Below are positions 1 to 29,228 of a stretch of 29,228 nucleotides of DNA, piece after piece. Both the position numbers and the translations under genes were made by a program. Numbering within the stretch: the stretch's first letter is position 1; each line of letters opens with the position of its first letter. The notes under the pieces are model-generated. The model searched no databases, was not told the origin of the DNA, and saw nothing but the letters and a program-made list of their open reading frames with translations. This DNA comes from a virus. The stretch lies in the IMG/VR virus record IMGVR_UViG_3300010338_000991. One strand, written 5' to 3'.

Positions 1-127
1 CAGAGATACAATTTAGGATTTCAGACGCTCTTGATCTTTGGATCGATTTAGCCAAATCAACAAACTTTGATGTAAAGGCTGCGGAACAAAAAGTGATACA
101 TTTGCGACCATCAACCGGAGATTATAC
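1..127. repeat. Terminal overlap copy 1: identical to 29102-29228 (circular contig closure or short terminal redundancy)
   Basis: Direct comparison of the two window ends; 127 nt identical, and the reading frame of the tail gene is preserved across the junction. Confidence 0.85.
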
Positions 128-1184
128 CATAGCCAACTTTATTGAAGAATTGGCTGTTGGTTTCCCGGAAGAGATGCGCACAATTCTGCTTTATGACTAT
201 AGTCCATTTCGTGTTAATGATCTCAAAATAAATTTTGCCAAATACAATGATGATTGGCTTCGGTGGACCGGGCTTGCTCTGCCTATTGATGATCCAATTG
301 CTGCAGAATATTGGGATGTCGAAACAACCTATAACACATTGCTTGCTCAATTCCTGTTGTATGCCGCTGGCGGATGGTCGTGGGATACCGGTGATGGAAT
401 TTGGCGCATTACAAGATTTGTGGTATTTATAGACGATCCGAACGGGCTGTGGGATGAATTAGGCTTTTATGGACAAGTTAGATATTGGATGGCAGACATA
501 GACACAAACAATCAATTCCAAATCGTGTCCGAAATAACGGGAAACAGTAAACCGATTGTGTATAAACGCCAGTTGCCGAGAAAACTTATGAAACTAAAGC
601 TATACCCTGAATCAATGGAAAGTGAAGTCTATGCGGCTCATTATCCCATTATTCCACCTACTTCAATCGTAACAGAAAATTTCTCAATCGTTCAAAGAAA
701 TTGGGCTGAGTTTTATTACAGTGGAGATATTCAGCTCAATTCTATAGTGCTTAATGCCGGTTCATATAACTACGCTCGAGTAGTAAAAGCGGCACTAATA
801 GCCAATAGATTAACCATGTATCCAGGATCTTCTGCTATCGTGATTAGACAACACATAACAAGCCTTAATGATGAACATGAAGCCATCCCTCTTACGGATG
901 AAGATATGTCACATCTAATGATTAATGGCTCTTTGGGGCAAATTGATTTGTCAGATATGAATGAAGTCAACGCAGGATATTTAATTCCTGCTCTTGATAA
1001 AGCATACAGCGATTTATTGGGGTCGCTCAGGAAGCAACTACGATTTTCCCTAAAAACGCAAATAGCGAATACTGTCGGATTGCTTGATAAAATATCTATT
1101 GACGGGAAATCTTACTACATAACATCAATTGGACATCCTAACGATAACGGAACAACAGACATAATTGCAATAGGAGAGAGATAG
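1..1184 (+). CDS. Tail protein, 3' part of the junction-spanning gene (distal tail or baseplate-like by position)
   Basis: ORF-track frame 93-1184 is open back to base 3 and in phase with 28801-29228 through the 127-nt overlap; TAG stop at 1182-1184. Confidence 0.5.
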   Translation, partial: EIQFRISDALDLWIDLAKSTNFDVKAAEQKVIHLRPSTGDYTIANFIEELAVGFPEEMRTILLYDYSPFRVNDLKINFAKYNDDWLRWTGLALPIDDPIAAEYWDVETTYNTLLAQFLLYAAGGWSWDTGDGIWRITRFVVFIDDPNGLWDELGFYGQVRYWMADIDTNNQFQIVSEITGNSKPIVYKRQLPRKLMKLKLYPESMESEVYAAHYPIIPPTSIVTENFSIVQRNWAEFYYSGDIQLNSIVLNAGSYNYARVVKAALIANRLTMYPGSSAIVIRQHITSLNDEHEAIPLTDEDMSHLMINGSLGQIDLSDMNEVNAGYLIPALDKAYSDLLGSLRKQLRFSLKTQIANTVGLLDKISIDGKSYYITSIGHPNDNGTTDIIAIGER

Positions 1185-1709
1185 ATGAGAATGATCTGGG
1201 GCTTTGGCGGCGCTAAATTTTCGCAGCCGGATAACGAGCTATATACAAAAACATTCCCGAACGCAATCGGCACAATGTGGGTAGAAGAGGAGTCATCGTC
1301 ATGGATTACACGTAGCCGGAAAAGCGTCAAGGTCGTTCATGGCTATCGCGTATATATGCGCATCCGGTTATTCAATATCGATTTAGGCATGAATAATGCT
1401 AATCAAATTACCGGGCTGTTCAACATTCTATCAAATTGCCACGAAAGCGGGATTATGGTATATCCGCGATATAGCGAAGCGACGGGATCTACCCAAGGAT
1501 ATCTTTGCCATTTAAACGGCAACATCTCTCCGCAGGATATTGCCAATGTTCCGGTCGGGCAATGGATTGATCTCGAGTTTAAGAGCATTAATCTGGTGAA
1601 CCGCATACCAACCGCAAGCGATTATCCGGACTACTATAACTTGATAACCAGCAATGGTGACAACATAACTACAACAAACGGTAAAAACATTACGGTGAGG
1701 AAACACTAA
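1185..1709 (+). CDS. Hypothetical tail or baseplate protein (174 aa)
   Basis: ATG directly abuts the upstream stop; tightly packed in the tail gene block. Confidence 0.4.
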   Translation: MRMIWGFGGAKFSQPDNELYTKTFPNAIGTMWVEEESSSWITRSRKSVKVVHGYRVYMRIRLFNIDLGMNNANQITGLFNILSNCHESGIMVYPRYSEATGSTQGYLCHLNGNISPQDIANVPVGQWIDLEFKSINLVNRIPTASDYPDYYNLITSNGDNITTTNGKNITVRKH

Positions 1710-2473
1710 TGATAGACATAACAATTCAAGATCTTGATCTAATTACATCGCCATCGCTTTTGGCGAATGGTGATATTTTCCACTTTCAAGATGAAAGTGA
1801 TGCATACACCGACAAGGTAGCAGCTCTATCGGCAATAGCAGAATTTATTTTGCGGGAGAAAACCATCCCTTCTGTGGGAAGCGCAATTGTAACCGATACC
1901 GCCACACAAACCTTGACAAACAAAACGCTTACATCGCCTAAGATCAATAGTGCCACTTCGATCACCGCTAATGGCGCGGACATCAACAAACTCTCCGGCA
2001 TGACATCAACCACAGCCGAGCTAAATAAGCTCCATGGCGTGACCGCAAGCACGGCAGAAATCAACCACCTAACTGGCGTCACAAGCAACATTCAAACGCA
2101 AATAAACAATATCGCAAACCAATCTCAAGATGTCACAAGCAGAATATATCATTATTCACCCGGCGTTATTTCTGGAGTAACATCGCAAATCATTAACGAA
2201 GCAACCTTAAGAGCAGAACACGGAATTAACTCAAGTTATAGGGTTGACCCCGATTCAATCACTGTAAGCGTGTATAAGCTTGAAAACGAACGCTGGTATT
2301 TGCTCCCGCCAGCAGTACCTTCCGAAGGATCCGATGGAGTGGTCTTTTTCAACACCACCACAGCAGGAATAGCCAGTCAAACCGTATTAAATAGCATATA
2401 CGTATTGCTCTCAAGCTCAGAGTCTTATCGGATTGTAGTTAACTATAAAGTTTTAGCATTAGCAGGAGTATAA
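1709..2473 (+). CDS. Tail fibre protein with short tandem peptide repeats (Phage_fiber_2-like)
   Basis: Translation shows repeated units TSTTAELNKLHGVTAS / TAEINHLTGVTSN, resembling the phage tail-fibre repeat; start overlaps upstream stop (TAATG). Confidence 0.55.
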   Translation: MIDITIQDLDLITSPSLLANGDIFHFQDESDAYTDKVAALSAIAEFILREKTIPSVGSAIVTDTATQTLTNKTLTSPKINSATSITANGADINKLSGMTSTTAELNKLHGVTASTAEINHLTGVTSNIQTQINNIANQSQDVTSRIYHYSPGVISGVTSQIINEATLRAEHGINSSYRVDPDSITVSVYKLENERWYLLPPAVPSEGSDGVVFFNTTTAGIASQTVLNSIYVLLSSSESYRIVVNYKVLALAGV

Positions 2474-2474
2474 C

Positions 2475-2795
2475 ATGAAACATTTACAGCTCGACCCTAA
2501 TGGAAATCCTATGCCGGTATTTTTCCCCGGCACAAAAACCGCAAACGCAACAATCAAAGTGGATGGCACAGGTGCAAGCGCCGCAACCACAAGTGCAATT
2601 CACGCAACCGAAAACACGGTCGTTCGGCTTCTCGCAGATGCCGATTGCCATATCGCCATTGATACGGCTCCCACTGCCACAGTGGGCGACATCCCGTTGA
2701 CTGCAGGATTGCCAGAGTATTTCGTAATCAGTGCCGGAGCTAAAATCGCGGTTCTTGGCGCAAACCTTTATATTACAGCACACACAGGAGCATAA
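2475..2795 (+). CDS. Hypothetical protein (106 aa), tail region
   Basis: ORF with ATG 2 nt after the upstream stop; Ala/Thr-rich. Confidence 0.4.
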   Translation: MKHLQLDPNGNPMPVFFPGTKTANATIKVDGTGASAATTSAIHATENTVVRLLADADCHIAIDTAPTATVGDIPLTAGLPEYFVISAGAKIAVLGANLYITAHTGA

Positions 2796-2797
2796 CC

Positions 2798-3211
2798 ATG
2801 TTTGACGCAATACTTTCCAACATCGACAAAATGCAGGCTATAATTGTAGCCTTATCTGCGCTTATCGGCGCAATCGTGACATTGGTGATCACGAGTATCC
2901 GTGAATACAAGCGCATACGCAAGGAACTCGCAGCAGAAGAGTTCAAAGAAATTGCTGCACCATTCTGCAAGATAGCCGAGACTGAACCCATGAAGGTGCT
3001 GGCAAATTTGATTAAGCCTCCCGTTGACGATTCGCCAATGATAGCCAACAGCAATGAAGGCAAGGCGCTAATCGTTGGTCAAGCAGCTATCGAGAAAGCG
3101 CAGATAAAGAAGCCGAGCATACTTAAGAAGCTTGGCATCAATAGCGCCGCCGATGCCGTTCCGCTGGTATCGAGCTTGTATAAGCTCATCAAGCCGCTGG
3201 TGAAGAAATGA
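2798..3211 (+). CDS. Membrane-anchored hypothetical protein (137 aa)
   Basis: N-terminal hydrophobic helix (AIIVALSALIGAIVTLVITSI) then a Lys-rich soluble part; stop overlaps the next start (ATGA). Confidence 0.4.
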   Translation: MFDAILSNIDKMQAIIVALSALIGAIVTLVITSIREYKRIRKELAAEEFKEIAAPFCKIAETEPMKVLANLIKPPVDDSPMIANSNEGKALIVGQAAIEKAQIKKPSILKKLGINSAADAVPLVSSLYKLIKPLVKK

Positions 3212-4110
3212 GCTTAGGTCTCGGCTTAGGTCTCGGTCTCGGCTTGTCTCGTGCGCGTGGCGGGGGAGAAACATACACAGATATTGAACTCCCACTAATC
3301 GCAAACATCATTCGTGCATGGTCAACCCGCAGATTGATACCGGATTACAAAGATGGTGTCGCAATTATGGCTGACCGCACAGATCCGATTGGCGACATAC
3401 CTGATGATGGATTCCCGGTAAATTTCAGACCGGATGGAACGATATTGATTCCCGCCGGAGACGATGCTCGTGCTTATGAGCTTCACGAACAACATGGAAT
3501 AGCTGAATCGAAGCTCATCAACCCAGTGTTCGCTAATTGTCCGCAGGTGCTGGCGTCTAATGCCATGAAGAAGGGCTTGGATTGGTCATACAAAGAGACA
3601 GGTTCAGGCAATAATCTATATATGAATCCAGAAGATCCGGAGATTGAGGAGGTGTTTCTTGGCTCGTTTTCGCTAATTGTGTGGGCTTTTCTTGACCGCA
3701 ATAACCAGTCCGTGTTTTACCGAAGAAAGGAAGGAGGAAGTGGAAGATGGAGCATAAGAAGCAACTATGCCGCAGTGAATAGCTTAATATGCCATCTTTC
3801 AGGTGAATCAGACATCATTTTTACTCCAGACGCCGGAAACACATATAGAAACAAATGGGCATCATTTGGATTTGTCATCAATAGAGTTCCAGAAACTGCT
3901 GTTTACACTGTATATTTGAACGGCATCAGTATCGGCACAGGCAATCTTCCCACACCAGCGGCGGTAGGAAGCAACACTTTGCGAATTGGCTCTGGATATT
4001 CAGTCACAAATGCAATAGCCGTCAATGATTTGGCGATATGGGATACAGCCTTATCTGATGAACAGATGAAAGCTGCACACGATGCTATGGCTCCATATTA
4101 TGCAACATAG
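3208..4110 (+). CDS. LamG (concanavalin A-like lectin) domain tail fibre / receptor-binding candidate with N-terminal (LG)n repeat
   Basis: C-terminal motif NAIAVNDLAIWDTALSDEQMKAAHD matches the typical end of Laminin_G_3 domains; N-terminus MSLGLGLGLGLGL. Confidence 0.55.
   Translation: MSLGLGLGLGLGLSRARGGGETYTDIELPLIANIIRAWSTRRLIPDYKDGVAIMADRTDPIGDIPDDGFPVNFRPDGTILIPAGDDARAYELHEQHGIAESKLINPVFANCPQVLASNAMKKGLDWSYKETGSGNNLYMNPEDPEIEEVFLGSFSLIVWAFLDRNNQSVFYRRKEGGSGRWSIRSNYAAVNSLICHLSGESDIIFTPDAGNTYRNKWASFGFVINRVPETAVYTVYLNGISIGTGNLPTPAAVGSNTLRIGSGYSVTNAIAVNDLAIWDTALSDEQMKAAHDAMAPYYAT
3211..3246 (+). repeat. Coding tandem repeat (12-bp unit cttaggtctcgg x2 plus partial) encoding the (Leu-Gly)n tract
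   Basis: Sequence agcttaggtctcggcttaggtctcggtctcggcttg read directly. Confidence 0.6.
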
Positions 4111-4125
4111 GGAAAGGGGTAAATT

Positions 4126-4344
4126 ATGGATTACTTAATATTCGACACCGAGCAGGAAGCAATGGCATATAGCCATGCTGAAGCTGTAAGACATGGACAT
4201 GGTAAACTGAACTCCACTATACAGTATTGGTGGGCATGGCGAGAGACAGTAGATGGGAAATGGGCTGTGCAGTGTCCAGATGGCACGGAAGAAGAACCGA
4301 TTTGGAAACCACTGGAGGTGGAAGATGAAGATGAAATTGACTAA
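4126..4344 (+). CDS. Hypothetical small acidic protein (72 aa)
   Basis: ORF with acidic C-terminus (EVEDEDEID); no recognisable motif. Confidence 0.35.
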   Translation: MDYLIFDTEQEAMAYSHAEAVRHGHGKLNSTIQYWWAWRETVDGKWAVQCPDGTEEEPIWKPLEVEDEDEID

Positions 4345-6468: not shown

Positions 6469-6897
6469 TCATGATCGAATGTTATTTGTCCACTCTTTTC
6501 TTTCCCACACTCGCATAATGATTGCGTCATTGCATCCGTATCGCTTCCACGCATGAATGCACACAATTTGGCTGTCATCGTTCCAAATCACGCCGTTAAG
6601 CGCATCGAATACACCCTTACATAGATTATCTATGTCTGGTCGCGATGGCTTATATACGCTTCTTTCTCGCAGTTCTGCGATGCGCTTCTTCCCCCACGAT
6701 TTTGGATGTTTCCAAACGAACTCGACAGACACATACAGATCACCGGATAGCGATCGCATGTCTTGAGTGGTTTGCGCCAATGCCATTGCCGTTATCGCTT
6801 TTTGGTAATCGGTTACGGCTTTGCTCTGGTAGCTGTGCTTACCCATGCGAAAGCTTTGCTTTGCTTTCGGCGTGATGTCGAAATATAGGCTGATCAT
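6469..6897 (-). CDS. rusA: RusA-family Holliday junction resolvase (ORF track extends to 6909)
   Basis: Motifs KPSRPDIDNLCKGVFDALNGVIWNDDSQIV typical of RusA; GGAG 8 nt upstream of the ATG at 6897. Confidence 0.8.
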   Translation of the reverse strand: MISLYFDITPKAKQSFRMGKHSYQSKAVTDYQKAITAMALAQTTQDMRSLSGDLYVSVEFVWKHPKSWGKKRIAELRERSVYKPSRPDIDNLCKGVFDALNGVIWNDDSQIVCIHAWKRYGCNDAIIMRVWERKEWTNNIRS

Positions 6898-7060
6898 TTT
6901 CCGCTCCATAGAAAGATCAGGAAAAATATGATGCCTATGCCGGCAGCGATGTTCAGGTGTGGAATGTTCACCCGAAAAACATACGCAATCACCAGCGGAG
7001 CCTCTGCAAGTGTCGCTATCAGCAGACTTATATCTGCTATTTTATGTTTCAATTTCTTAC

Positions 7061-7288
7061 TCATGATTTTCTCCTTTGCATTGCCATGTCTTTATCCGCC
7101 AAAAGCGCGTCCGTAATCTCCTGGAAGTGCTTACCAATCCCATTGCGCTCGTATCCATTCGTTCCAGCTAGCCATGCGTAGAATTGCCGATCACTGATGT
7201 TATGTATCCGGCAAAATCCGGTGATCGAATATCCGCGATCCCGTATCGCCTTCTTTATTTCCATTCCTTGATCTTTTGTTATTCTCAT
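7061..7288 (-). CDS. Small putative HTH DNA-binding protein (75 aa)
   Basis: Start ATG overlaps the upstream stop (TAATG) with GAGG upstream; helix-turn-helix-like segment YSITGFCRIHNISDRQFYAWL. Confidence 0.4.
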   Translation of the reverse strand: MRITKDQGMEIKKAIRDRGYSITGFCRIHNISDRQFYAWLAGTNGYERNGIGKHFQEITDALLADKDMAMQRRKS

Positions 7289-7566
7289 TATCTTGCCTCG
7301 CAATTTTCGCACACGTAATAATTGCCATGATCAGCCACCTGCTTCCATGTATATAGTCTGCCGCATTTGCCACAGCGAGCTATGCTATGCGCTTTGATTT
7401 TTTCGTATTCCTTGCCTAAGTTTTTTAGCGATCTGCGCAAGGCAATTTCTGTCTCTGCGTGTTTCAAACTCGCTCTTATCCTGTGCTTATCAATTAGCTT
7501 TGCTCGGCGGGCAAAATAACCCGCCAGAGCAATTGCGATAATGGTTATGCATATCATTATGATCAT
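7288..7566 (-). CDS. Membrane-anchored zinc-ribbon protein (about 92 aa; ORF track extends to 7608)
   Basis: AAGGAG 8 nt upstream of ATG 7566, which overlaps the RecT stop (ATGA); N-terminal TM helix; C-terminal CGKCG..CENC. Confidence 0.4.
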   Translation of the reverse strand: MIIMICITIIAIALAGYFARRAKLIDKHRIRASLKHAETEIALRRSLKNLGKEYEKIKAHSIARCGKCGRLYTWKQVADHGNYYVCENCEAR

Positions 7567-8534
7567 TTTGAATCTCCTTCTAAACTTGTTTTGTTTTCGT
7601 TCAGCCATGTTTCTACTTCGTCAAGTGCGGCATGGCGTGTCGCGCTCTGGATTTTCGGCAACCACTCTTCTAATTCTTCTCCGGTAGCAAGTTTCGTCAT
7701 TCTTTCAATTAGCTCGACTTGCCGCTCTTTTATTGTTGGTTTTGCGTTCGCACCGCGCAATATCGCGGCGAGATGGTTATGGTATTCATATAGATCATGG
7801 AAGTTCGTGCATTCGGCAATCATGCTACACCCTAAATGTTTTTGGATGCTCGAATGCCTGCGAACCTCATTATCAAAGCCGTCAATTTTGTTATCCACAA
7901 GGTTTCGCATGACGCCCTGTGTCGCTTTCATGAGCAGATCAAACTCTGATTCGCCTGCCGGGGCAGGATCCGGAACCGACTCGAACTCCGCGTCAATCGC
8001 ATCGTGATGCGCGCTTGCTTCCGGCACTTCTTGCGCATCGTTACCAGAAGTAACAAGATCAACAGCCTCTTCATGAGACAGCATGCCAAACACGATATCC
8101 GGGAACAGATCATTGACCGCGTAGCTAATCGCTCGCGCCTTCAGCATGCGTTGCGGGTATTTGCGCCAATTGTCCTTTTTAGCAAGCTCGGCACGGATCG
8201 CGTCTTGCATTGTAAATGTGATCTCTACGGACTCAACTTGGCCATCCCTGCGCTTGCGGCTCATTTTCACGATGCATCGTTCTGCAGTGGCATCAATCTC
8301 ACAGCCATTGTATTCAGGGTGGTTCTTGGCCAGTGCCAACTTGAGATCGGCCTTTAAACTCGGCATGCCGTTGACATTGTAGATATTCATCAGTGCTGTC
8401 GCTGCGTTTAATCCGAGTGCCTGGCCAGCACTCAGAACGAATAGCACGTCAGCAGGGTTCCTGTGAGCATGGAGCCGGCTTTGCGCCAGCTCCTTCGAAA
8501 TCGATTGCAAGGCTACAAGATCGTTCATCATCAT
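7563..8534 (-). CDS. recT: RecT/Bet-like single-strand annealing protein
   Basis: Segment NWRKYPQRMLKARAISYAVNDLFPDIVFGMLSHEEA resembles the conserved core of lambda Bet and E. coli RecT; AAGGAG upstream of ATG 8534; acidic C-terminal extension. Confidence 0.65.
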   Translation of the reverse strand: MMMNDLVALQSISKELAQSRLHAHRNPADVLFVLSAGQALGLNAATALMNIYNVNGMPSLKADLKLALAKNHPEYNGCEIDATAERCIVKMSRKRRDGQVESVEITFTMQDAIRAELAKKDNWRKYPQRMLKARAISYAVNDLFPDIVFGMLSHEEAVDLVTSGNDAQEVPEASAHHDAIDAEFESVPDPAPAGESEFDLLMKATQGVMRNLVDNKIDGFDNEVRRHSSIQKHLGCSMIAECTNFHDLYEYHNHLAAILRGANAKPTIKERQVELIERMTKLATGEELEEWLPKIQSATRHAALDEVETWLNENKTSLEGDSK

Positions 8535-8548
8535 CTTAATTCTCCTTT

Positions 8549-9663: not shown

Positions 9664-9869
9664 AGCTCTATCTCCAGTTGTTCAGGATTATTGAATAACT
9701 GGTTTTCATCATTAGAGTCAGGTATCCACAGTAGCTGTTTGCTATAAACACAGCCGTTGTCGCGGTGTATCCAAGAGTATCCGTAGATCGGGCTGTAGTC
9801 GCAGGGCGGCATTAAGGTGTGGCATACGGGACAAAAACGTATAGGTGGGCGTTCTCGTTTGTGTTCCAT
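9660..9869 (-). CDS. Small Cys-rich protein (69 aa)
   Basis: AAAGGAG 6 nt upstream of the ATG; CPVC..PPC motif. Confidence 0.4.
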   Translation of the reverse strand: MEHKRERPPIRFCPVCHTLMPPCDYSPIYGYSWIHRDNGCVYSKQLLWIPDSNDENQLFNNPEQLEIEL

Positions 9870-16813: not shown

Positions 16814-16814
16814 A

Positions 16815-20622: not shown

Positions 20623-20624
20623 AT

Positions 20625-20864
20625 ATGGCATATCGTAAAATTGATGATAACGATACCATTCAGATTCGCAGAGCGCAAGGTGGCAACAAACCGGAAACGC
20701 GCACCGCTGCGGAGCTGAACGAGTGTTTCAGCAAAGAAGAACCGACTATAACCCCCGGCGCCGCTGGATCTTTGCGCTATTCCGATACTGCGCTTTATGT
20801 ATCGGTTGGCGCAAGCACAACTGCTGTATCAAATTGGAAATCAATAACATTTAACAACGAATGA
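20625..20864 (+). CDS. Hypothetical protein (80 aa)
   Basis: GAGGTGA upstream of the ATG; no motif. Confidence 0.35.
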   Translation: MAYRKIDDNDTIQIRRAQGGNKPETRTAAELNECFSKEEPTITPGAAGSLRYSDTALYVSVGASTTAVSNWKSITFNNE

Positions 20865-20871
20865 GGACAAC

Positions 20872-21462
20872 ATGGCACTAAAAGAAATCTTGGATAAGAT
20901 TATGAACTCACTTCCTGCTGATGCGGGAAACGACATTCTTTCTCTGCTGGCAGATGCCAAGCGAGAGGCGAACATCGTGCTTGCGGATCTGTCCGCAGCA
21001 AACAACGAATCAAAGGAACGCAGATTGAAGCTTGCCGAGATGTCAAGTCAGATTGATGCGCTTAACGCTAAACTGGCGGATGCCACGAAAGCGGATCCAG
21101 AACTTGATTCGATTAAAGAGAAGGCTGCCAAATATGACGAGCTTTTGCAAAGCAAGAAAACCGAAACCCTGAATCTATGGAAAGCCAAACATGAAGAATT
21201 GCAAAAGATTTTGTCAAGTGATACGGATAAGCGCAAAGACAAGGTCGCCGCGCTGATGCCTGACTTCTCAATCCCGGCAGACGGCGAAGAGCTTGATGCC
21301 GACACAGCCGCACAGAACCTGAAATTGTATTCTGTATTGGAAAAAGCGGGAGTATTTGCCGATCCTGCTGACACCAAAACGGATTTCCAGCGAAAGAGCA
21401 ATCCGGGTGGCGGCGAAAAAGAACCCTACACCTTCGGCAAAGCATTACAAAAAAAAGCATGA
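20872..21462 (+). CDS. Scaffolding protein candidate
   Basis: Ala/Lys/Glu-rich, predicted coiled coil; directly upstream of the putative major capsid gene. Confidence 0.5.
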   Translation: MALKEILDKIMNSLPADAGNDILSLLADAKREANIVLADLSAANNESKERRLKLAEMSSQIDALNAKLADATKADPELDSIKEKAAKYDELLQSKKTETLNLWKAKHEELQKILSSDTDKRKDKVAALMPDFSIPADGEELDADTAAQNLKLYSVLEKAGVFADPADTKTDFQRKSNPGGGEKEPYTFGKALQKKA

Positions 21463-21470
21463 GGTAAAAC

Positions 21471-22424
21471 ATGAATATCAGAGATTTTCTTATCTCGCTA
21501 CAAAGCGAACAAGCTCCCATCGTAACCGATTTGGTGAAGAGCTTGGGTATTTTAGAAACCGCGCAATTCGGATTCAGCAGCGATTATCTGCGCCATGAAT
21601 TTGAGGTCCAGACAGATGATGGCGATGCCGCCGTACGTGCAATCAATGGATCAATCGTAGCCACAATGTCAAATAGTATCCTTGGCAGCGTTCAGCTTCC
21701 GGCTATCGAGCGCCTCGTTGAAATCGACAAAGTGCTCGCTAAGAAGTGGGGCGGCATTCAGGGATTCTTGAACAACAAGAATCGCACAGTCGCATACATG
21801 CGCTCAATCCTACAGCTACTTGCAAAGGCTATGATTTATGGTGACGACCCTACTTTTGGCGTGCCGGGTGCATTCAAGGGACTGCATCAGATCGCTAAAG
21901 CCAACAGCAATGTTGTTGCTCAGCTTTCAGGTGCTACCGGAAGCAGAACATCAATCTTTGCCGTGCATTGGAGCGAAGGCGAGACCGAAATTGTAATGCC
22001 ACAGGAACAAACCGGCGACATCGTTCAAATCGAATTGGTCGGCGGAGGCACCTTGCAAGCACCAACCGCAGACACCACCACGAAAGCGCGTCAACTTGTT
22101 TACGGAGCTAACTTCTGGACTAATGCTGCTCTGTGCGCTCCGTCGAAGGCGTCTGTTGCCGCAATCACCCAAATCGATGGCACACACAAACCCACCGCCG
22201 CACAGATTGACTTACTGATTGACGCCGTCAAAGGTCTTGCTGATGGCAAAACGTTCCTGTATATGAATCGCGAGGGGCGCAGATACATAAAAGAGCTTAA
22301 AAACACTAAGCTCAGCATGGCTCCCGGCGATACCGGCTACAACACCGTAGTATCCGATTGGGATGGCATCCCGGTCGTTCTGGAAGAATCAATCCTCAGC
22401 ACAGAAACCACTGCGCTGGACTAA
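21471..22424 (+). CDS. Major capsid protein candidate (317 aa)
   Basis: Synteny (after scaffold), size, GAGG upstream of the ATG; no profile search done. Confidence 0.55.
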   Translation: MNIRDFLISLQSEQAPIVTDLVKSLGILETAQFGFSSDYLRHEFEVQTDDGDAAVRAINGSIVATMSNSILGSVQLPAIERLVEIDKVLAKKWGGIQGFLNNKNRTVAYMRSILQLLAKAMIYGDDPTFGVPGAFKGLHQIAKANSNVVAQLSGATGSRTSIFAVHWSEGETEIVMPQEQTGDIVQIELVGGGTLQAPTADTTTKARQLVYGANFWTNAALCAPSKASVAAITQIDGTHKPTAAQIDLLIDAVKGLADGKTFLYMNREGRRYIKELKNTKLSMAPGDTGYNTVVSDWDGIPVVLEESILSTETTALD

Positions 22425-22438: not shown

Positions 22439-22855
22439 ATGGCTTATAAAAATCGTTCCTATGTCGTGGATCAAAAATTGATCCTTAGCTCCGCACAAGC
22501 CCTGCCGAACAAAACAAGCGCAGATTCCACCAATGTCGTTGACTTTGGCGGAAACTCTGGCGGACTTGCCAAAATTGTAGTCAAGGCAAACACCAACATC
22601 GCTGTTGCAAACACATATAAATTGACCATTGTAGCCAGCTATGGATCCACCAGCACACCGACTGATACGTTGGACAAGGTGCTCTTTACCAAAACAGCTC
22701 CGGCAGCTGGCTTTTCTTATGCCGCTGGAGACACCATCGTAGAAGAGATTATCCCGGATTCGCTCCCTGATAACTATCATTTCCTTAAACTAACCTATAC
22801 CACCACAGCCAATGAGTCAAATGAGAAAGTTGATGCCTATGTGGTGATGACCTAA
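22439..22855 (+). CDS. Hypothetical virion protein (138 aa; head decoration or Ig-like candidate)
   Basis: Thr/Ser-rich beta-like composition directly after the capsid gene. Confidence 0.35.
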   Translation: MAYKNRSYVVDQKLILSSAQALPNKTSADSTNVVDFGGNSGGLAKIVVKANTNIAVANTYKLTIVASYGSTSTPTDTLDKVLFTKTAPAAGFSYAAGDTIVEEIIPDSLPDNYHFLKLTYTTTANESNEKVDAYVVMT

Positions 22856-22868
22856 CACTCCCTCCCGA

Positions 22869-22897
22869 GCGGGGCGGTTTCCTCCTTGCCGCCCCGC
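22869..22897 (+). other. GC-rich hairpin (GCGGGGCGG, 11-nt loop, CCGCCCCGC) after the capsid block
   Basis: Perfect 9-bp stem read directly; no U-tract follows, so a terminator role is uncertain. Confidence 0.4.
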
Positions 22898-22911
22898 ACA
22901 TTTAAGGATGT

Positions 22912-23628
22912 ATGATGAAAACACTTGCAACGCTTGACACGATCTCTCGGTGGGAAAAAGAGGTCAATAACCTTGGCGGATATACAGAATCATGGGGCTT
23001 GATCTCTGTCTCTAATGAATCGCCGGCTACAATTTCGGTTTCTGATAATGTAGCAAAAGGGATATTTGCTCTTGCCGCGGGCGGTTTTTCTTCCGTTGTG
23101 GCAGAAGATAATCTTTTGAGCATCCCGCCGGTGCAGACCGTATCTGTCGCGCTTTACGATTCCGGGGATGCGCACATTGATACATTTGCGCTCAATGAAG
23201 GGCATGGCGTTTATCTCTTTGGCGCAAACGGCATTGAAACCGGAACGCTGTCAGACGCGTCTGCATGGGCTGTCTGCCAATCTGCGCGCACATGGCAAGA
23301 CAAAGTTGATATTGCGCATCTTGTTGTTGAGAATGATGTATTGACAGCGCTGTATAATCGCCTGAGCCAATACACTGATTCCGAAATTATCGATGCAATA
23401 ACCAACATTGACGCGCTTGCGATTGCTGTTGACATGAAAGCGCTGGAGCTTATCTATATGGATTTAGCGAATAGCGGATTCAATCAATTGTATCAAACCA
23501 AGGCAACAGAATACGCGCGCCGATATGCGGCTGAACTGCGCTCCGCGATTCAGCGGATTAACATCAATATCGATGGCAGCGCAAAAGATCCAAATCGCAT
23601 CGTAACGCAAGGGATGTTGTCAAGATGA
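22912..23628 (+). CDS. Hypothetical protein (238 aa), head-tail connector region
   Basis: ORF with AAGGA upstream; position between capsid and tail genes. Confidence 0.4.
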   Translation: MMKTLATLDTISRWEKEVNNLGGYTESWGLISVSNESPATISVSDNVAKGIFALAAGGFSSVVAEDNLLSIPPVQTVSVALYDSGDAHIDTFALNEGHGVYLFGANGIETGTLSDASAWAVCQSARTWQDKVDIAHLVVENDVLTALYNRLSQYTDSEIIDAITNIDALAIAVDMKALELIYMDLANSGFNQLYQTKATEYARRYAAELRSAIQRININIDGSAKDPNRIVTQGMLSR

Positions 23629-24059
23629 AGATTGATACTATCTCAGTACCGCGCACAAATTTGCGATTTTCGGTCAGCGCATCTGCCATGAAAAAAATCG
23701 GTGACGAAGCCGTACGCATGATGATAGACAGAACAAAGAAAGGCATAGATATTGATGGCATGCCATTCGCTCCATATTCGCCACAATACGTCAAATACAA
23801 GGGCGAAGCCGGGCGCGTTACTGATCCCGTTAATCTACAATTCAATGGTGAGATGCACCGCTCAATGGTGGTCGTGGCTACGAACAATAACGCCAATATC
23901 AGCTATGGCGATCGCCAGCGCGCATTGGTTGCGCTATATCATCAAACCGGGAACGGTCAACCGCAGCGCAAGCATTTTGGCCTTACATCGGAGCAAGCGC
24001 GGCGCATTATGGATATGCTAACGGCTGAAATTCGCAAGGCGGTGAAAAGTGGTAAATAA
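23625..24059 (+). CDS. Hypothetical protein (144 aa), head-tail joining region
   Basis: Start overlaps upstream stop (ATGA); position. Confidence 0.4.
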   Translation: MKIDTISVPRTNLRFSVSASAMKKIGDEAVRMMIDRTKKGIDIDGMPFAPYSPQYVKYKGEAGRVTDPVNLQFNGEMHRSMVVVATNNNANISYGDRQRALVALYHQTGNGQPQRKHFGLTSEQARRIMDMLTAEIRKAVKSGK

Positions 24060-24480
24060 AATAGAGCCGGTTAAAGAGGTTGTACGCACGCGTCTAATAG
24101 CAGCTGGCATCAAGCGCTGTTTGGACTATCCTGAACAAATTGACGCCATTGGCAATTTCCTGCCAATGGCATTCTTGCGCTCCGGTAACACGCCCGTAAC
24201 GCCAGTGCCCAGCGGATGTGTCATGCTGAACTATGCGCTCACAATATACATTATCTCACAGACGGGGATTGCCAAGACAAAGCACCACGAAGACTTGATC
24301 TTTGCGTGCGCAGATAGCTTGATGCAAGATCTCGACATGGGCGGGACTGCGTATTCGGTAAATCTGTCGGAGCTTTACTTCAACGACTCAATTCCGTATG
24401 TCACCGACGCGCAACCGCAAAACAGCATACAAACAAGTTCAATAACATTATCAATACAAATAAAGGACTCACGACTATGA
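24049..24480 (+). CDS. Hypothetical protein (143 aa), tail completion region
   Basis: ORF with GTG start overlapping the upstream gene; position. Confidence 0.35.
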   Translation: MVNKIEPVKEVVRTRLIAAGIKRCLDYPEQIDAIGNFLPMAFLRSGNTPVTPVPSGCVMLNYALTIYIISQTGIAKTKHHEDLIFACADSLMQDLDMGGTAYSVNLSELYFNDSIPYVTDAQPQNSIQTSSITLSIQIKDSRL

Positions 24481-24674
24481 AAATGAAATCAATCAATGAT
24501 AAGCCCATTTACGGCGTTTACGATGGCAAAGCGTATCTGCTGGACGGCGAGCCAAGAGACTATCCAGAAGCCGTCAAAATGGCATATGCCGATATCTTAA
24601 TTGACGCAGAACCTGCACCGGAAGCAGAGGAAGCAATCGAACCGGATGACAACGAATATGATGGAGGCTACTAA
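24477..24674 (+). CDS. Hypothetical small acidic protein (65 aa)
   Basis: Start overlaps upstream stop (ATGA). Confidence 0.35.
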   Translation: MKMKSINDKPIYGVYDGKAYLLDGEPRDYPEAVKMAYADILIDAEPAPEAEEAIEPDDNEYDGGY

Positions 24675-25666
24675 TGGCTAAAAGATTTGGAAATCAATAC
24701 AGAATCGCTATTGGCAAAGAGACAAGCTACGGTAGTGGCTTCACGAAGACAAGCACAAGCGGAACGCCTGTAGTCGGAAGCGTGGCATGGACTGATCTGC
24801 TTGTCCATTCCGGCGTTATCAATATGACGCCCACAATCAACACTGCTCAAACGACATACAAAAGCGGATTGACCGTAACGCATCCCTGTGAAGAAGTGCA
24901 GACTACCTCGATGGGAACCGTTACCGTTTCTGGCGACGCATCTCTTGCTATCCTCCAAAAATATATTGGCGGGGTGATGGTTGAACGCGCATTTCCACCG
25001 GCTATGGTGTTTCCTGCAGATACAGCAGATATTCCTTCTTTCGTGCTGTATCAGATTTGGGATGATGCCCCCTCTGAAGGGAAATTCAAAGTTAATCGCG
25101 TCAAGGGCGCAAAATTGCAACAGCTTGTCATTACCGGCTCACAGGGTGGACTTATCCAATTTGAGGCTACATTCGAGACGCAGACCGTAGAGCGCGAAGT
25201 TCAGCAAGAAATAACTGGCATTGATCCCGGCAGAATCTGCGGAACAGCGCTTCAGTTTGGTGAGGTAGATGCGAGTTTGGCGATGGGCAATGCGGCTACC
25301 GCATTAGACACATTCTCCATAACATTCACAAACGAGTTTACTGCTGATGCGTCCAAATTTGCCAATAATATGACGCTGTTCAATCCGCATATCATAAAAC
25401 AAGGCGGCGAGATTAGCTACACTTGTAATTACGACAGTGCTGGAGCGGAAATTAACTTAAGCATTATTAGCGACCCAGAGACGATTAATACCGACACGAT
25501 AACTATAATGTCTGGAGTAAATTACTTTCAGGCTATTATTCCCAGTATTGCAACATCGCTTGATGTGCCGGACGTTGAGCGCGATTACTTCAAGCTTAAC
25601 TACACAGGTCGCATTATAAGTGATGGCGTAAGCAATGTGCCAGAAGTTAATATCTCAAACGCATAG
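24674..25666 (+). CDS. Major tail (tube) protein candidate (330 aa)
   Basis: GGAGG upstream; position immediately before the chaperone pair and tape measure. Confidence 0.45.
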   Translation: MAKRFGNQYRIAIGKETSYGSGFTKTSTSGTPVVGSVAWTDLLVHSGVINMTPTINTAQTTYKSGLTVTHPCEEVQTTSMGTVTVSGDASLAILQKYIGGVMVERAFPPAMVFPADTADIPSFVLYQIWDDAPSEGKFKVNRVKGAKLQQLVITGSQGGLIQFEATFETQTVEREVQQEITGIDPGRICGTALQFGEVDASLAMGNAATALDTFSITFTNEFTADASKFANNMTLFNPHIIKQGGEISYTCNYDSAGAEINLSIISDPETINTDTITIMSGVNYFQAIIPSIATSLDVPDVERDYFKLNYTGRIISDGVSNVPEVNISNA

Positions 25667-25676
25667 GAGATAAACA

Positions 25677-26027
25677 ATGAGCAAATTCAAAAACTGTTTC
25701 GCTACGGCGAATGATATGCGCGACTATGATATCGTCATTGACGGTGAGATCGTAGCGAAGGCGCATACTCTGACGATTCAGGATAAAGCGGAAATAGAGC
25801 GCAAGAGCATCACAAAAACCTTAAACGCGAACGGCGTCAATACGGACATCAATTCTAATGCGCTCATGCTTTATACCGTATTGCGCGCTTTGGATTCATG
25901 GATCATTGACGCACCGCTAAACGAAGAGAACCTTGGCAAACATCCGATGCTGATGGACATGTTCAATGCCGTTACCCAACACGAAACAGATGTTGCCCAA
26001 ACCATGCGAGATAATGAAAAAAACTGA
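25677..26027 (+). CDS. Tail assembly chaperone (G-like)
   Basis: Small acidic protein directly upstream of the tape measure gene, ending in the slippery heptamer A_AAA_AAC just before its stop. Confidence 0.55.
   Translation: MSKFKNCFATANDMRDYDIVIDGEIVAKAHTLTIQDKAEIERKSITKTLNANGVNTDINSNALMLYTVLRALDSWIIDAPLNEENLGKHPMLMDMFNAVTQHETDVAQTMRDNEKN
26018..26024 (+). other. Programmed -1 frameshift site (A AAA AAC) giving a G-T fusion chaperone
   Basis: Heptamer is in X_XXY_YYZ phase with the 25677 frame; the -1 frame is open from here into ORF 26036-26350. Confidence 0.55.
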
Positions 26028-26035
26028 TACGATCG

Positions 26036-26350
26036 GTGGAGGTCTTATTCCGCACAGACCCCGCCGATCCATTCCGAGATAATAACATGAAAACGTCCAT
26101 GTGTCGCCACTGCGAGTTAGACCAAACCTGCGAAAAACTACAGGATTACCCTAAAATCAGCCATCTATCCGCGTGGCTGATTAAGTGGCATTATGAAATT
26201 GAGGCGGGATTTGTGATCTATCCGCGTGGTGGCTCGTGGGAAAACCAATGGCAATGGTTCATCGATGGTCTCGGCATCGTGCGGAACACTGTTGCGCAAG
26301 AAGAAATGCGAAAAGCTCAAGAAGGATCGAAAAAACATGGCAGATTATAG
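26036..26350 (+). CDS. Tail assembly chaperone T-extension (expressed as a -1 frameshift fusion with 25677-26027)
   Basis: ORF in the -1 frame relative to the G gene, overlapping the tape measure start. Confidence 0.5.
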   Translation: MEVLFRTDPADPFRDNNMKTSMCRHCELDQTCEKLQDYPKISHLSAWLIKWHYEIEAGFVIYPRGGSWENQWQWFIDGLGIVRNTVAQEEMRKAQEGSKKHGRL

Positions 26351-28811
26351 CGGAGACCTTAAATATCGCATCACCGTAGATGGCGCAGAGGCGTCACAAG
26401 CTAAGCTTTCCGGTCTCGGAGCTTCGTTCAAGAGTGTCGCTTCGACCGTCGCAGCAAGTGTTGCAGCGATGGTGTCCTTCCGAAAAGCAATCGAGTTTGC
26501 TGGCAATGCAATGGCAAACTACGAGAATGCGATCCGAGCGGTACGCCAGCTTGACGCGACCCTGGTGTCCACCGGCAGAGCAGCAGAATTCACCTCGCAA
26601 GAACTCAAGAATATGGCTTCAGAGCTGCAAAGGCTAAGCAATTTCGGTGATGAAGACATACTGCAGGGCGTAACGCTGCAGCTGCTTCGCTTTGATGCCA
26701 TCGGTAGGGATATCTTTCCACGCGCACAGCAGCTTGTAATTGACCTTGCCGAATCTATGGGCGGTGTAGAAAATGCTGCAAGAACTCTTGGCATCTCTTT
26801 GGCTGACCCGACTCTTGGTCTCACGCGCTTACGCAGAATAGGCGTGGCCTTTAATTCCACACAGGAAGCGCAAATTAAAAACTTTGTGGAGACAGGTAAA
26901 GTAGCTGAGGCACAAGCGGTTTTGATGTCTGCGTTAGAGGAGCGTTTTGGCGGATTGGCTTTGGCGTCTGTATCTGCGACCACACAAATGAAAAATGCTT
27001 GGGGCGATTACTTAGAAAGCGTTGGATCTTCGCTCTCCTTTTTCGATGGAGTCAAACGCGGCATTACTGCAATGTTGGTCAGTGTAGCGGGGGCGCACGA
27101 TGTTACATCGAAATCCGCTCAGCTTGCTGCGCTGGAAACACAAAAAGCTTGGGGTGAGGCAACAATAAACATTGGCAATATTATAGCCGATATATCTACC
27201 GGAGTTGTTGCTGTTATACATGGCGTGATCAAGGCGTTTGATTTTGCCGGGAAGGCGATCCCCACTGCGCTTGGGCTCGCTATGGAAGGAGCGCATTTAG
27301 TCGTTGCGTCTTCAATGAATTCCATCGTTGACCTAATTTTCTCACCAATAGAAGGCTTGTTTAATGATATTGATGCTGTTTATGCTAAAATAACTGGGAA
27401 ATCGCTTGGTATTACCAATGCCTTTGACGCTGTACGCATCGATGTTACTGGTGTAAGGGCAGACATTTCCAGCAGCGCAGACGATCTTTCTTTGTTATGG
27501 ATTGATGTTAAGGAGTTTTATCGCACGTGGGGAGATGTTGCCTCCGGTATCGCGACAGGAAAATTTAGCAACGCAGACGAACAAATTAAATTGCTGCGCG
27601 AAGGCATTGACGCACAGCGTAAGGCAATTGAAAACGGGCTTCTAAACATAGATTTGCCTGAATCAAAAGGCAGCAAGGAAGATCGCGGCGGCATGGGCGG
27701 CGATATTGCGCAAATTACAAACTATTATGATACCATAATGGCATTAAACAATAGCACATCGCAGCAGATCATGGATAAGTACAACAAAATGCGTGCTGCG
27801 CTTGACGAATATTTGCGCGCCAATACCAAAAGCCAAGAAGAGTATCAAAACAAGCTTAGACTTGGTCTAGCAGAAATCGCCAAAGCAGAAACAGCCGAAT
27901 TGGCTGCGGAAAAAGAACGCCAGCTGTCTATGGTAGAATCCTTTGTCAATTCTGTTATCAATCTTAATGCGTCTGAAAAAGATGCCATTGCCAAAAAGTA
28001 TGCGGATATGCGCACAACAGCAGAAGCATTTTATGCGGACGGCTTGATGTCTGAACAAGCGTTTAGCGATGCAATTACACAAATAAACCAAGCAGAACTT
28101 GATGCCATTACAAATTTGGAAGCTAAACGTCTTGATCTGCGCATACAAACGCTTGGTAGCATTCGCGGTTTTGAAGATGAGTTTTACCATGCCAGGATTA
28201 CACAGATTGACGCCGAAACCGAAAAGTTGCGCGAAGCAGGATTAGCAGAGATAGAAATTGAAGCATGGAAGCTGCAGCAGATAGCTGAACTTGAAACTGA
28301 AATTCACCAGCGCAGAATTGACCAAATGTCTGAATATGAGCGCTTTGTTCTGGGTTCCGATCAGCGGATAATGAACACGCTGGAAGGCTCTCTTGCCAAT
28401 TCACTCGCAAGCATGATTTCCGGGACCAAATCCGCATTAGATGTGTGGAGATCTCTTTGGGCGAATGTTGCGCAAGCCGTTATTGCAGAAATCAGCAAAA
28501 TTATCGTAAAGGCACTATTCGCCAACACATTGCTCAAGGGCTTGGGCATGATCGGCAATTTTTTCTTCCCCGCAGCTGGAATAATAACACCAGTTGTAGC
28601 GCAAGGCGCAAATTTGCTTAGCAACAATCCTATACACAACACGCCAACAATCCCAAGCAATAACAACAATGTCGTGCAATTGATGAGGAAAATAGATTCA
28701 TTAATTGAATCGATAGAAAATAACCCGCCACAAATATATACTCAATTAATAGAAGGCGTTCCGCTCAATAATGCAGTGCGCAGGGCTTCGGTGATGGCTA
28801 ATGAGTTATAA
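26337..28811 (+). CDS. Tail tape measure protein (about 824 aa; ORF track starts at 26226)
   Basis: Long Ala/Glu/Lys/Gln-rich protein after the chaperone pair; hydrophobic Gly-rich C-terminal segment. Confidence 0.75.
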   Translation: MADYSGDLKYRITVDGAEASQAKLSGLGASFKSVASTVAASVAAMVSFRKAIEFAGNAMANYENAIRAVRQLDATLVSTGRAAEFTSQELKNMASELQRLSNFGDEDILQGVTLQLLRFDAIGRDIFPRAQQLVIDLAESMGGVENAARTLGISLADPTLGLTRLRRIGVAFNSTQEAQIKNFVETGKVAEAQAVLMSALEERFGGLALASVSATTQMKNAWGDYLESVGSSLSFFDGVKRGITAMLVSVAGAHDVTSKSAQLAALETQKAWGEATINIGNIIADISTGVVAVIHGVIKAFDFAGKAIPTALGLAMEGAHLVVASSMNSIVDLIFSPIEGLFNDIDAVYAKITGKSLGITNAFDAVRIDVTGVRADISSSADDLSLLWIDVKEFYRTWGDVASGIATGKFSNADEQIKLLREGIDAQRKAIENGLLNIDLPESKGSKEDRGGMGGDIAQITNYYDTIMALNNSTSQQIMDKYNKMRAALDEYLRANTKSQEEYQNKLRLGLAEIAKAETAELAAEKERQLSMVESFVNSVINLNASEKDAIAKKYADMRTTAEAFYADGLMSEQAFSDAITQINQAELDAITNLEAKRLDLRIQTLGSIRGFEDEFYHARITQIDAETEKLREAGLAEIEIEAWKLQQIAELETEIHQRRIDQMSEYERFVLGSDQRIMNTLEGSLANSLASMISGTKSALDVWRSLWANVAQAVIAEISKIIVKALFANTLLKGLGMIGNFFFPAAGIITPVVAQGANLLSNNPIHNTPTIPSNNNNVVQLMRKIDSLIESIENNPPQIYTQLIEGVPLNNAVRRASVMANEL

Positions 28812-29228
28812 ACTTGTTTACATTGATCACAATGATTACGAGCACACTTTTTATAATGTGCTTAATTTTAGCATTGATCCTATACAAGCTAATACAGACA
28901 ACATTTTTACTTCATCCGGCAGAAAGCTAAGCATAACAATCCCCTATGATGCTTCCGCCATAAACGCATTCCACAATAACGATCAGCCGAATGAAATATA
29001 TCCGGAATATTTAGCAGGGCACTTTAGATTCTTTAAGGATAACGAAGTAATTTTTATTGGCATGGCAAAAGTTACATTTATCGACATTGATGAGCAGAAT
29101 GCAGAGATACAATTTAGGATTTCAGACGCTCTTGATCTTTGGATCGATTTAGCCAAATCAACAAACTTTGATGTAAAGGCTGCGGAACAAAAAGTGATAC
29201 ATTTGCGACCATCAACCGGAGATTATAC
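28801..29228 (+). CDS. Tail protein, 5' part (ATG at 28801 overlapping the tape-measure stop; runs off the window end and continues at 1-1184; full product about 494 aa)
   Basis: Open frame from ATG 28801 with no stop to the window end; the last 127 nt equal bases 1-127 and the frame matches ORF 93-1184; position immediately downstream of the tape measure gene. Confidence 0.5.
   Translation, partial: MSYKLVYIDHNDYEHTFYNVLNFSIDPIQANTDNIFTSSGRKLSITIPYDASAINAFHNNDQPNEIYPEYLAGHFRFFKDNEVIFIGMAKVTFIDIDEQNAEIQFRISDALDLWIDLAKSTNFDVKAAEQKVIHLRPSTGDY
29102..29228. repeat. Terminal overlap copy 2: identical to 1-127
   Basis: Same as above; unique genome length is therefore about 29101 bp. Confidence 0.85.

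Follow-up and report, generated by a model that had tools for sequence, protein, structure and literature searches.

Viral contigs whose two ends carry the same sequence, the "direct terminal repeat" (DTR) contigs of CheckV and IMG/VR, have an exact end repeat of the same length as the assembler's largest k and a break point that depends on the assembly; apart from this, the contig is a single complete viral genome, and the repeat is the standard signature by which such genomes are called. According to the legend of Extended Data Fig. 3 of the CheckV paper (PMC8116208), the lengths of these repeats cluster at assembler k-mer sizes and the break site is random. An exact repeat (approx. 100–300 bp) at both ends of the sequence record is likewise found in phages with T7-like short DTRs, where its position and length are fixed by the terminase and it lies outside genes. 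A different arrangement is that of the siphoviruses of the Jerseyvirus, Kagunavirus and Dhillonvirus type, with genomes of 40–45 kb, a circular genetic map and SPP1-type head modules in the order TerS, TerL, portal, MuF-like protein, scaffold and capsid; for these phages headful packaging is backed by PhageTerm and restriction data (PMC10783031) and by TerL trees (PMC5582158).

The window analysed here, i.e., the whole stretch of 29,228 nt, shows the features of the first of these systems. The longest exact prefix that is also a suffix measures 127 nt; the identity of 1–127 with 29102–29228 had been reported in the first-pass annotation, and the same match was obtained when recomputed. The chance of an exact match of this length is approximately 4^-127, that is, practically impossible, and no other repeat reaching 25 nt, direct or inverted, exists in the whole window. 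Once one copy is removed, 29,101 bp of unique sequence are left. Joining the ends produces one ORF of 494 aa that starts at the ATG at 28801, runs through the junction 29101|1 and reaches its stop at 1182–1184, in agreement with the earlier claim of a gene of about 494 aa that becomes complete only when the ends are joined; in the linear window this gene is split into a 5' piece cut off by the right end and a 3' piece read as a 363-aa ORF from a GTG (93–1184). The features at the two ends are the following:

1 to 127, no strand: left copy of the terminal overlap, inside the junction gene (residues 101–143)
29102 to 29228, no strand: right copy of the terminal overlap, redundant; trimming it gives the 29,101-bp circle
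28801 to 29101, plus strand: 5' part of the junction gene, codons 1–100 of the joined ORF; the identical protein P0001 is intact elsewhere
1 to 1184, plus strand: 3' part of the junction gene, codons 101–494 and stop; putative tail-tip protein whose family has no annotation

The same genome is present in other public assemblies. At least 11 other contigs of 29,129–29,231 bp, which are independent as assemblies but may partly share read sets (JGI re-assemblies, third-party ENA assemblies, Logan) and thus are not necessarily independent samples, are 100% identical to the window, have varied start points and are collinear over its junction, which they cross without mismatch or gap; the one variant among them is an 11-nt VNTR deletion. 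The circle is fully covered at 100% identity, and the join is correct because the 494-aa protein is intact on these contigs. P0001 (494 aa), identical to the joined protein at 100%, is called as an intact, internal gene on other public contigs. Contig starts fall at positions 1, 1226, 8509, 15242, 18180, 19569, 20660 and 26411 of the circle, among others, and no end position is shared among the approx. 29-kb assemblies compared. In five assemblies, the window included, the terminal overlap was measured directly from both contig ends:

window: overlap of 127 nt, circle position 1
JGI Ga0209204_1000946: overlap of 127 nt, circle position 1226
SPAdes NODE_1098_length_29156: overlap of 55 nt, circle position 20660
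JGI Ga0116165_1000643: overlap of 123 nt, circle position 19569
MEGAHIT k141_618996: overlap of 141 nt, circle position 8509

The contig sizes are those of the circle plus the overlap (29101 + 127 = 29228; with 55, 29156; with 123, 29224; and 29090 + 141 = 29231), the MEGAHIT circle being of 29090 because the 11-nt deletion removes one repeat unit; a Logan contig of 29,129 bp corresponds to the circle plus 28. The JGI metaSPAdes and the older MEGAHIT runs are taken to have had 127 and 123, respectively, as their largest k. The repeat is not biological, because the length and the position of the overlap follow the k-mer of the assembler.

These results bear directly on the possibility that the 127-nt repeat is a genuine virion DTR, which would make the genome a linear molecule of 29,228 bp whose defined ends fall in a tail gene. 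The sole point in favour of this explanation is that an exact terminal repeat exists. Nevertheless, other assemblies with the same sequence run through 29101|1 and have their overlaps, of 55, 123, 127 and 141 nt, at four sites elsewhere on the circle; the repeat length equals a standard assembler k, and the proposed ends would interrupt a single gene that is conserved and uninterrupted in all relatives. A DTR of exactly 127 bp, which the first-pass annotation had named as the finding that would overturn a circle, is therefore contradicted by overlaps whose length and position differ among assemblies and match each assembler's k, instead of staying fixed irrespective of the assembly; we regard it as extremely improbable. 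The overlap also departs from T7-like DTRs in that its position and length vary from assembler to assembler and that it falls within a conserved gene. The other way in which the circle could mislead is misassembly, through a false join mediated by a repeat, a chimera or a concatemer of a smaller unit. No point supporting it was found; internal repeats reaching 25 nt are absent from the window, the identical circle was obtained with three assemblers at k values from 55 to 141, the gene order over the junction is collinear with that of more distant relatives, and every module is present in a single copy, so that this explanation deserves hardly any credence.

The window is very probably one complete 29,101-bp tailed-phage genome followed by 127 redundant bases made by the assembler. 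In the de Bruijn graph the reads of an uncultivated siphovirus-like phage close into a cycle, which an assembler with a largest k of 127 opened at one node, leaving the k-length sequence of the node at both ends; the repeat is thus an assembly signature of a circular map and not a physical terminal repeat, and the apparently split gene is an ordinary single gene of 494 aa, the first after the tape measure. The exact and unique end identity, the k-dependent length and the arbitrary break that permuted assemblies read through are those of the CheckV-type contigs, from which nothing substantive differs, except that the break in the window may reflect a branch of the graph and not a purely random choice. 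The finding is ordinary and already known in kind. The earlier description, a phage genome of about 29.1 kb that is complete and circular or circularly permuted, is supported by the contigs that run seamlessly over the window ends, by the coverage of the whole circle at 100% identity in other assemblies and by the full set of tailed-phage modules. Its wording as a "closed circular genome" holds for the assembly graph and the genetic map, and does not extend to a demonstration for the DNA molecule in the virion.

The gene content agrees with a complete genome of Caudoviricetes: modules for terminase, portal, major capsid, tail, lysis and replication each occur once, recombination genes are present as well, and neither host genes nor host flanks were seen. 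The whole system had been expected to lie inside the window, and indeed all the modules expected in a tailed phage are there. The terminase, structural and lysis genes are the following:

16815 to 18453, plus strand: terminase small subunit (132-aa call, weak) and large subunit (17203–18453, 416 aa, Terminase_6N)
18450 to 22424, plus strand: head module with SPP1-type portal, MuF-like minor head protein, a small ORF, a protein in the scaffold position and major capsid protein
19831 to 20622, plus strand: MuF-like minor head protein, weak match
21471 to 22424, plus strand: major capsid protein
22439 to 26350, plus strand: connector/tail module with neck and tail-completion proteins, a 330-aa tail tube candidate and two small ORFs in the tail-chaperone position
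26337 to 28811, plus strand: tape-measure protein, 824 aa from the ATG (longest ORF from the GTG at 26226), with phrog_27166, phrog_26084 and phrog_1538 and gene calls on identical contigs
1185 to 4110, plus strand: five putative tail-tip genes of 174, 254, 106, 137 and 300 aa
4615 to 4995, plus strand: endolysin, Peptidase_M15_3 (phrog_894, E 9e-35; PF08291)

Precomputed Pfam matches in the head module are PF05133 (SPP1_portal) and PF20911 (GP7), and the connector/tail module matches phrog_26 (Neck1) and, weakly, Phage_tube_2 and Phage_tail_S. Among the putative tail-tip proteins, that of 254 aa shows weak tail-fibre and virion-protein matches, and the last one, of 300 aa, has a precomputed Laminin_G_3 domain (PF13385). 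With 25 kb of the window as megablast query, none of 50,697 GenBank phages matched; the phage has no close cultured relative, yet it is of a familiar kind.

Another part of the genome is formed by the early genes, the methylase genes and the region between them:

6469 to 13987, minus strand: early module with RusA resolvase, RecT-like annealing protein, zinc-ribbon proteins and a radical SAM protein; further genes are an IS3-family remnant, a DnaC/IstB-like loader, a replication initiator and an HTH_17/MerR-like DNA-binding protein
13971 to 14306, no strand: divergent intergenic region with a high density of short tandem repeats (TRF)
14353 to 16813, plus strand: ParB-like nuclease-domain protein, C5 cytosine DNA methyltransferase and MetK-like S-adenosylmethionine synthetase, directly 5' of the terminase genes

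The methyltransferase matches PF00145 (E 3e-47), and the synthetase carries the N, M and C domains of S-AdoMet_synt. Within the intergenic region TRF detected an 11-nt unit repeated 3.6 times, an AGATA/AGATAAGATT array and a GACATC array; the copy number of the 11-nt unit differs between assemblies, the MEGAHIT contigs being one unit shorter. The minimum of the cumulative GC skew lies at approx. 12–15 kb, and 13971–14306 is a candidate origin or regulatory region. No inverted repeats flanking the IS were found. An in-frame TAG in the transposase gene raised the idea of stop-codon recoding, which was rejected: it is a single case for which one CAG-to-TAG change suffices, TAG ends ordinary genes here, and all structural genes are of full length in the standard code.

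The junction gene is the first gene 3' of the tape-measure gene, to which it is translationally coupled, its start overlapping the stop of the tape-measure ORF (end at 28811) by 11 nt. Relatives always carry one ORF between the tape-measure gene and the 174-aa gene, a position conserved in eight relatives, and in addition to P0001, 27 more homologues of the junction protein were detected, nearly all as full-length matches. Neither the protein nor the family profiles A1 and A2 gave a PHROG, Pfam or PDB sequence match, and in these searches no known Dit or Tal family was matched; an exhaustive representative search with the family returned only 38 relatives, none of them annotated. The AlphaFold2 model, built from a 26-sequence alignment, has a mean pLDDT of 42, too poor for fold searching. 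The label "tail gene" given in the first-pass annotation is thus sustained by synteny, and finds no backing in a family with no detectable annotated relative and an unusable structure model; we consider the product a putative tail-tip protein.

With respect to lifestyle, the genome showed no sign of an integrase, a partition ATPase, a repressor, a tRNA or a host flank. An integrated prophage or a phage-plasmid finds no counterpart here, as the genome shows no integrase and no ParA, and none of the assemblies has host flanks; host flanks are likewise missing from the metagenome contig that carries P0015, an NCBI relative of the junction protein. A profile of the junction protein revealed no integrated copy or confirmed relative in 185,579 species genomes, a scan of low sensitivity that used one fast-diverging protein. 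The missing integrase, the lack of host flanks and of an integrated copy, as well as the phage's own replication initiator, DnaC-like loader and iteron-like repeat region, would fit a circular extrachromosomal replicon, i.e., a plasmid-like prophage of which the circle is the resident molecule. We judge this improbable: there is no ParA/ParB pair, the ParB-like protein being of the short nuclease-domain type and located beside the methylase; repressor, anti-repressor and toxin-antitoxin genes were not detected; a virulent phage would equally be expected to lack an integrase; and the scan for integrated copies relied on a single fast-diverging protein.

The form of the virion DNA is a separate matter that cannot be read from the sequence. 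Our best guess, which we hold to be somewhat probable, is headful (pac) packaging, with linear, circularly permuted and terminally redundant virion DNA; this would account for reads that bridge every position and for no assembly stopping at a fixed end. In Pfam, the TerL matches Terminase_6N only. Its nearest cultured relatives are the TerL proteins of the headful siphoviruses of the Kagunavirus, Jerseyvirus and Dhillonvirus type, at 26–31% identity over approx. 90% of TerL. The window phage shares with these siphoviruses the order of the genes from TerS to capsid, the SPP1-type portal and the circular genetic map, and a MuF-like protein whose match is under the Pfam cut-off; it differs from them in its size (29.1 kb), in having no nucleotide similarity to any cultured phage by megablast, in the low TerL identity, in tail-tip proteins that are unannotated orphans, and in a packaging mode that is predicted here.

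Phages with cos ends or short DTRs would also yield a circle in a cellular-fraction metagenome, from concatemers or circularised DNA. It could then be that the virion DNA has fixed physical ends, either cos or a short DTR somewhere on the circle, and that the circle derives from concatemers, circularised intracellular DNA or DTR collapse; this would concern the form of the virion DNA alone, and the 127-nt overlap would still be an artefact. According to the CheckV paper (PMC8116208), a circular assembly does not separate permuted from fixed-end genomes, and the TerL of this phage has diverged too far from reference terminases to be classified firmly. However, the map is circular with a fixed end in none of the assemblies compared, and the closest cultured TerL relatives are headful packagers. 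Pairwise TerL comparisons gave nothing significant with lambda, HK97 (cos) and T7 (DTR; gp19), and likewise nothing with SPP1 and P22; a PDB sequence search with TerL gave no match. In addition, a cos-type enzyme would be expected to belong to the GpA or Terminase_1 class, whereas Pfam gives Terminase_6N only and there is no significant similarity to lambda A or HK97 gp2. Fixed ends appear rather unlikely, and headful packaging is the reading that we tentatively prefer.

For practical purposes, the last 127 bases should be trimmed, the 29,101-bp circular map should be used, and the two end fragments should be annotated as a single 494-aa gene; the 127-nt repeat should neither be reported as a DTR nor used for inferring packaging. 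The interpretation of other findings in the window requires nothing from beyond it.

The junction gene is part of a cassette that diverges sharply and in which related contigs break too. Ends inside this gene are seen in the contig of the window, in five IMG/VR contigs related to it and, on both sides, in a relative of 31 kb. We tentatively propose, as a possibility slightly short of an even chance, that the break point is non-random, the 3' third of the tape-measure gene and the whole junction gene constituting a sharply bounded exchangeable cassette, probably related to host range, in a lineage otherwise conserved at more than 90%. Co-occurring variants of the cassette would branch the assembly graph just past the conserved N-terminal region of approx. 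100 residues, and this branching would explain the contig ends shared inside the junction gene. If this is true, the contig ends would point to a hot-spot of recombination or microdiversity within an uncharacterised family of tail-tip proteins.

Bases 1-127 of the window are identical to its last 127, the longest match between prefix and suffix, and scanning the full sequence for repeats of 25 nt or more, direct or inverted, turned up nothing else. An exact match over 127 nt within 29 kb cannot have arisen by chance; likewise, a concatemer or a repeat-mediated join is ruled out, since the window holds no second repeat of 25 nt or more. Without the overlap, 29,101 bp of unique sequence remain, with a G+C content of 46%. 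When the ends are joined, a single ORF of 494 aa (the junction gene) runs from an ATG at 28801 through the point where the ends meet (29101|1) to a stop at 1182-1184. Its start overlaps by 11 nt with the stop of an upstream ORF of 824/861 aa that shows similarity to tape-measure families, and the duplicated 127 nt code for residues 101-143 of the product. The first-pass annotation had noticed both the end identity and a tail gene of about 494 aa that is complete only after joining, and these observations are borne out by the prefix/suffix comparison and by the coordinates of the ORF.

A search among 5.8 billion proteins retrieved a public database protein (P0001) with 100% identity to the joined product over all 494 residues, together with 27 more homologues, nearly all of which cover the full length. 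The encoding loci of P0001 and of five other window proteins led to no fewer than 11 further contigs, 29,129-29,231 bp long, in JGI, ENA and Logan, and to a Logan fragment of 1.9 kb that stems from a different run. All the fetched stretches align without gaps and with 100% identity on the doubled circle, except for an 11-nt deletion in a MEGAHIT variant, present in both stretches that span the site, and three mismatches in the 1.9-kb fragment. Jointly they cover the entire circle, junction included; therefore, the split gene is one ordinary gene and the window is one complete sequence copy, in support of the complete circular or circularly permuted genome of about 29.1 kb initially proposed.

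The overlap was measured directly on the window and on four other contigs for which both ends were obtained.

Length, terminal overlap and position on the circle of the measured contigs
Window: 29,228 bp, overlap 127 nt, circle position 1
JGI Ga0209204_1000946: 29,228 bp, overlap 127 nt, circle position 1226
ENA NODE_1098_length_29156 (SPAdes naming): 29,156 bp, overlap 55 nt, circle position 20660
JGI Ga0116165_1000643: 29,224 bp, overlap 123 nt, circle position 19569
ENA k141_618996 (MEGAHIT, k = 141): 29,231 bp, overlap 141 nt, circle position 8509

The lengths correspond to the circle plus k, i.e., 29,101 + 127, 29,101 + 55 and 29,101 + 123, and to 29,090 + 141 in the MEGAHIT variant, whose circle is one copy of an 11-nt tandem repeat shorter. 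We take k to have reached at most 127 in the JGI metaSPAdes runs and 123 in older JGI MEGAHIT runs. Among further contigs with these lengths, starts fall at 15242, 18180 and 26411, and an end falls at 3187. Logan SRR4236668_8402, identical to the window over the 21.5 kb compared, measures 29,129 bp, i.e., the circle plus 28, which fits no obvious k. From the measured overlaps and the scattered starts and ends it follows that the length of the repeat is dictated by the k of the assembler and that its position differs in each assembly, so a genuine terminal repeat of 127 bp is effectively excluded. The same k-dependent length and shifting position characterize the DTR contigs described for CheckV, where, according to the legend of Extended Data Fig. 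3, DTR lengths pile up at k-mer sizes (55, 77 and 99 among them), a circular template being opened at random by assemblers with a k-length repeat left behind (PMC8116208). As an assembler artefact, the 127-nt repeat is the mark of a complete phage genome that assembles as a circle, a situation well known in kind.

A circular assembly shows only that reads bridge every position, and nothing more about the form of the DNA. Judging from sequence comparisons, headful packaging would be the somewhat more probable mode, because no two assemblies share an end site, and because the sole detectable cultured relatives of the large terminase subunit (TerL) are siphoviruses of the Kagunavirus, Jerseyvirus and Dhillonvirus type, including Kenya-K3 and Kenya-K50 (26-31% identity, E-values down to 1e-32). 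For this group, PhageTerm, restriction patterns and PFGE speak for headful pac packaging (PMC10783031), as do TerL trees (PMC5582158). Pairwise comparison with the TerL proteins of SPP1, P22, lambda, HK97 and T7 gave no significant match; the SPP1-type portal and the MuF-like protein are compatible with headful packaging but not exclusive to it. Fixed ends hidden by concatemers seem rather unlikely, and a plasmid-like circular state quite improbable. Searches of the window for an integrase, a partition ATPase, a CI-type repressor or a tRNA were negative, host sequence is absent from every assembly of the genome, a scan of genome contigs with the profile of the junction protein detected no integrated copy, and Megablast no cultured relative.

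Modules were assigned by profile searches and precomputed Pfam matches.

Gene modules of the genome
From about 14.3 kb, plus strand: ParB-like nuclease-domain protein, C5 cytosine methyltransferase, MetK-like S-adenosylmethionine (SAM) synthetase
Packaging and head, plus strand: small and large terminase (Terminase_6N), SPP1-type portal, MuF-like protein, scaffold-position protein, major capsid protein
Tail, first part, plus strand: neck and tail-completion proteins, 330-aa tube candidate, two chaperone-position ORFs, tape measure
Tail, after the tape measure, plus strand: junction gene, five further tail-tip ORFs (one with Laminin_G_3)
Lysis, plus strand: M15 endolysin
6.5-14 kb, minus strand: RusA, RecT-like protein, zinc-ribbon proteins, radical SAM protein
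6.5-14 kb, minus strand: IS3-family remnant, DnaC/IstB-like loader, replication initiator, HTH protein

This gene set is complete for a small siphovirus-like phage, in agreement with the early claim that the whole system lies within the window. The interval from the tube candidate to the tape measure (25677-26350) holds a pair of short ORFs (116 aa and 83/104 aa) in the position of the tail-assembly chaperone pair, which is usually joined by a programmed frameshift. Among the RecT and RusA recombination genes (7288-9663, minus strand) lie a radical SAM protein of 261 aa with weak similarity to DUF5131 and two small zinc-ribbon proteins. At 13971-14306, where the early (minus) and late (plus) blocks diverge, the intergenic region is rich in short tandem repeats, with arrays of AAGCAAATGCT (3.6 copies), AGATA/AGATAAGATT and GACATC; its 11-nt unit is polymorphic, MEGAHIT contigs having one unit less, and the minimum of the cumulative GC skew falls close by. 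The stretch is a candidate for an iteron-bearing origin or for a regulatory region. The early region also carries a transposase remnant.

Components of the IS3-family remnant
10006-11218, minus strand: whole remnant
Start at 11218, minus strand: orfA (HTH_28)
10878, minus strand: A7 slippery run
To 10006, minus strand: orfB (HTH_21 and rve)

An in-frame TAG at 10267-10269 breaks orfB at the codon for which the conserved HSDxGxQY motif calls for Q, and no terminal inverted repeats of the remnant were found. The sequence of the remnant is identical across all assemblies; the insertion is therefore fixed, and probably inactive.

The junction protein has no match in PHROG, Pfam or PDB, either as a single sequence or as a profile. 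Among 1.84 billion representatives, searched exhaustively with a profile, only 38 relatives were found, most of them of 480-570 aa, which match in two stretches, the N-terminal ~130 and the C-terminal ~150 residues; the AlphaFold2 model has a mean pLDDT of 42. Its gene lies directly 3' of the tape-measure gene and overlaps it in the window and in eight relatives, and from this conserved place it is a putative tail-tip protein. Across related IMG/VR contigs, identity to the proteins of the window is 86-98% for the endolysin and the portal, capsid, tube, 174-, 106- and 137-aa proteins, 62-78% for the tape measure and just 36-37% for the junction protein. Nucleotide identity to one of these contigs (L034) exceeds 90% over most of the length, drops to 13-59% from about 27,600 across the entire junction gene, and is back at 97% immediately past its stop at 1184. 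This delimits a sharply bounded divergent cassette (27600-29101 plus 1-1184) formed by the 3' third of the tape-measure gene and the entire junction gene. A second cassette, at 3247-4340, has 31-41% nucleotide identity to L034 within conserved surroundings; it spans the 300-aa Laminin_G_3 protein and small ORFs downstream, and is likely a receptor-binding or host-range module.

The window itself breaks at residue 100/101 of the junction protein. Five of the 13 related IMG/VR contigs terminate in the first third of the gene (around residues 96-176), and a 31.2-kb relative, IMGVR_UViG_2706794958_000001, has both ends within it; these do not overlap, and of the gene just the middle is absent. Because these contigs also end there, the break point may reflect graph branching at a variable cassette rather than being wholly random, but even so it is a product of assembly.

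Directly upstream of the terminase genes, the three-gene block at 14353-16813 combines the ParB-like protein and the C5 cytosine DNA methyltransferase with a full, three-domain MetK-like enzyme. As far as gene content can tell, a SAM synthetase beside a methylase suggests that the phage would supply its own methyl donor, possibly in the service of anti-restriction.
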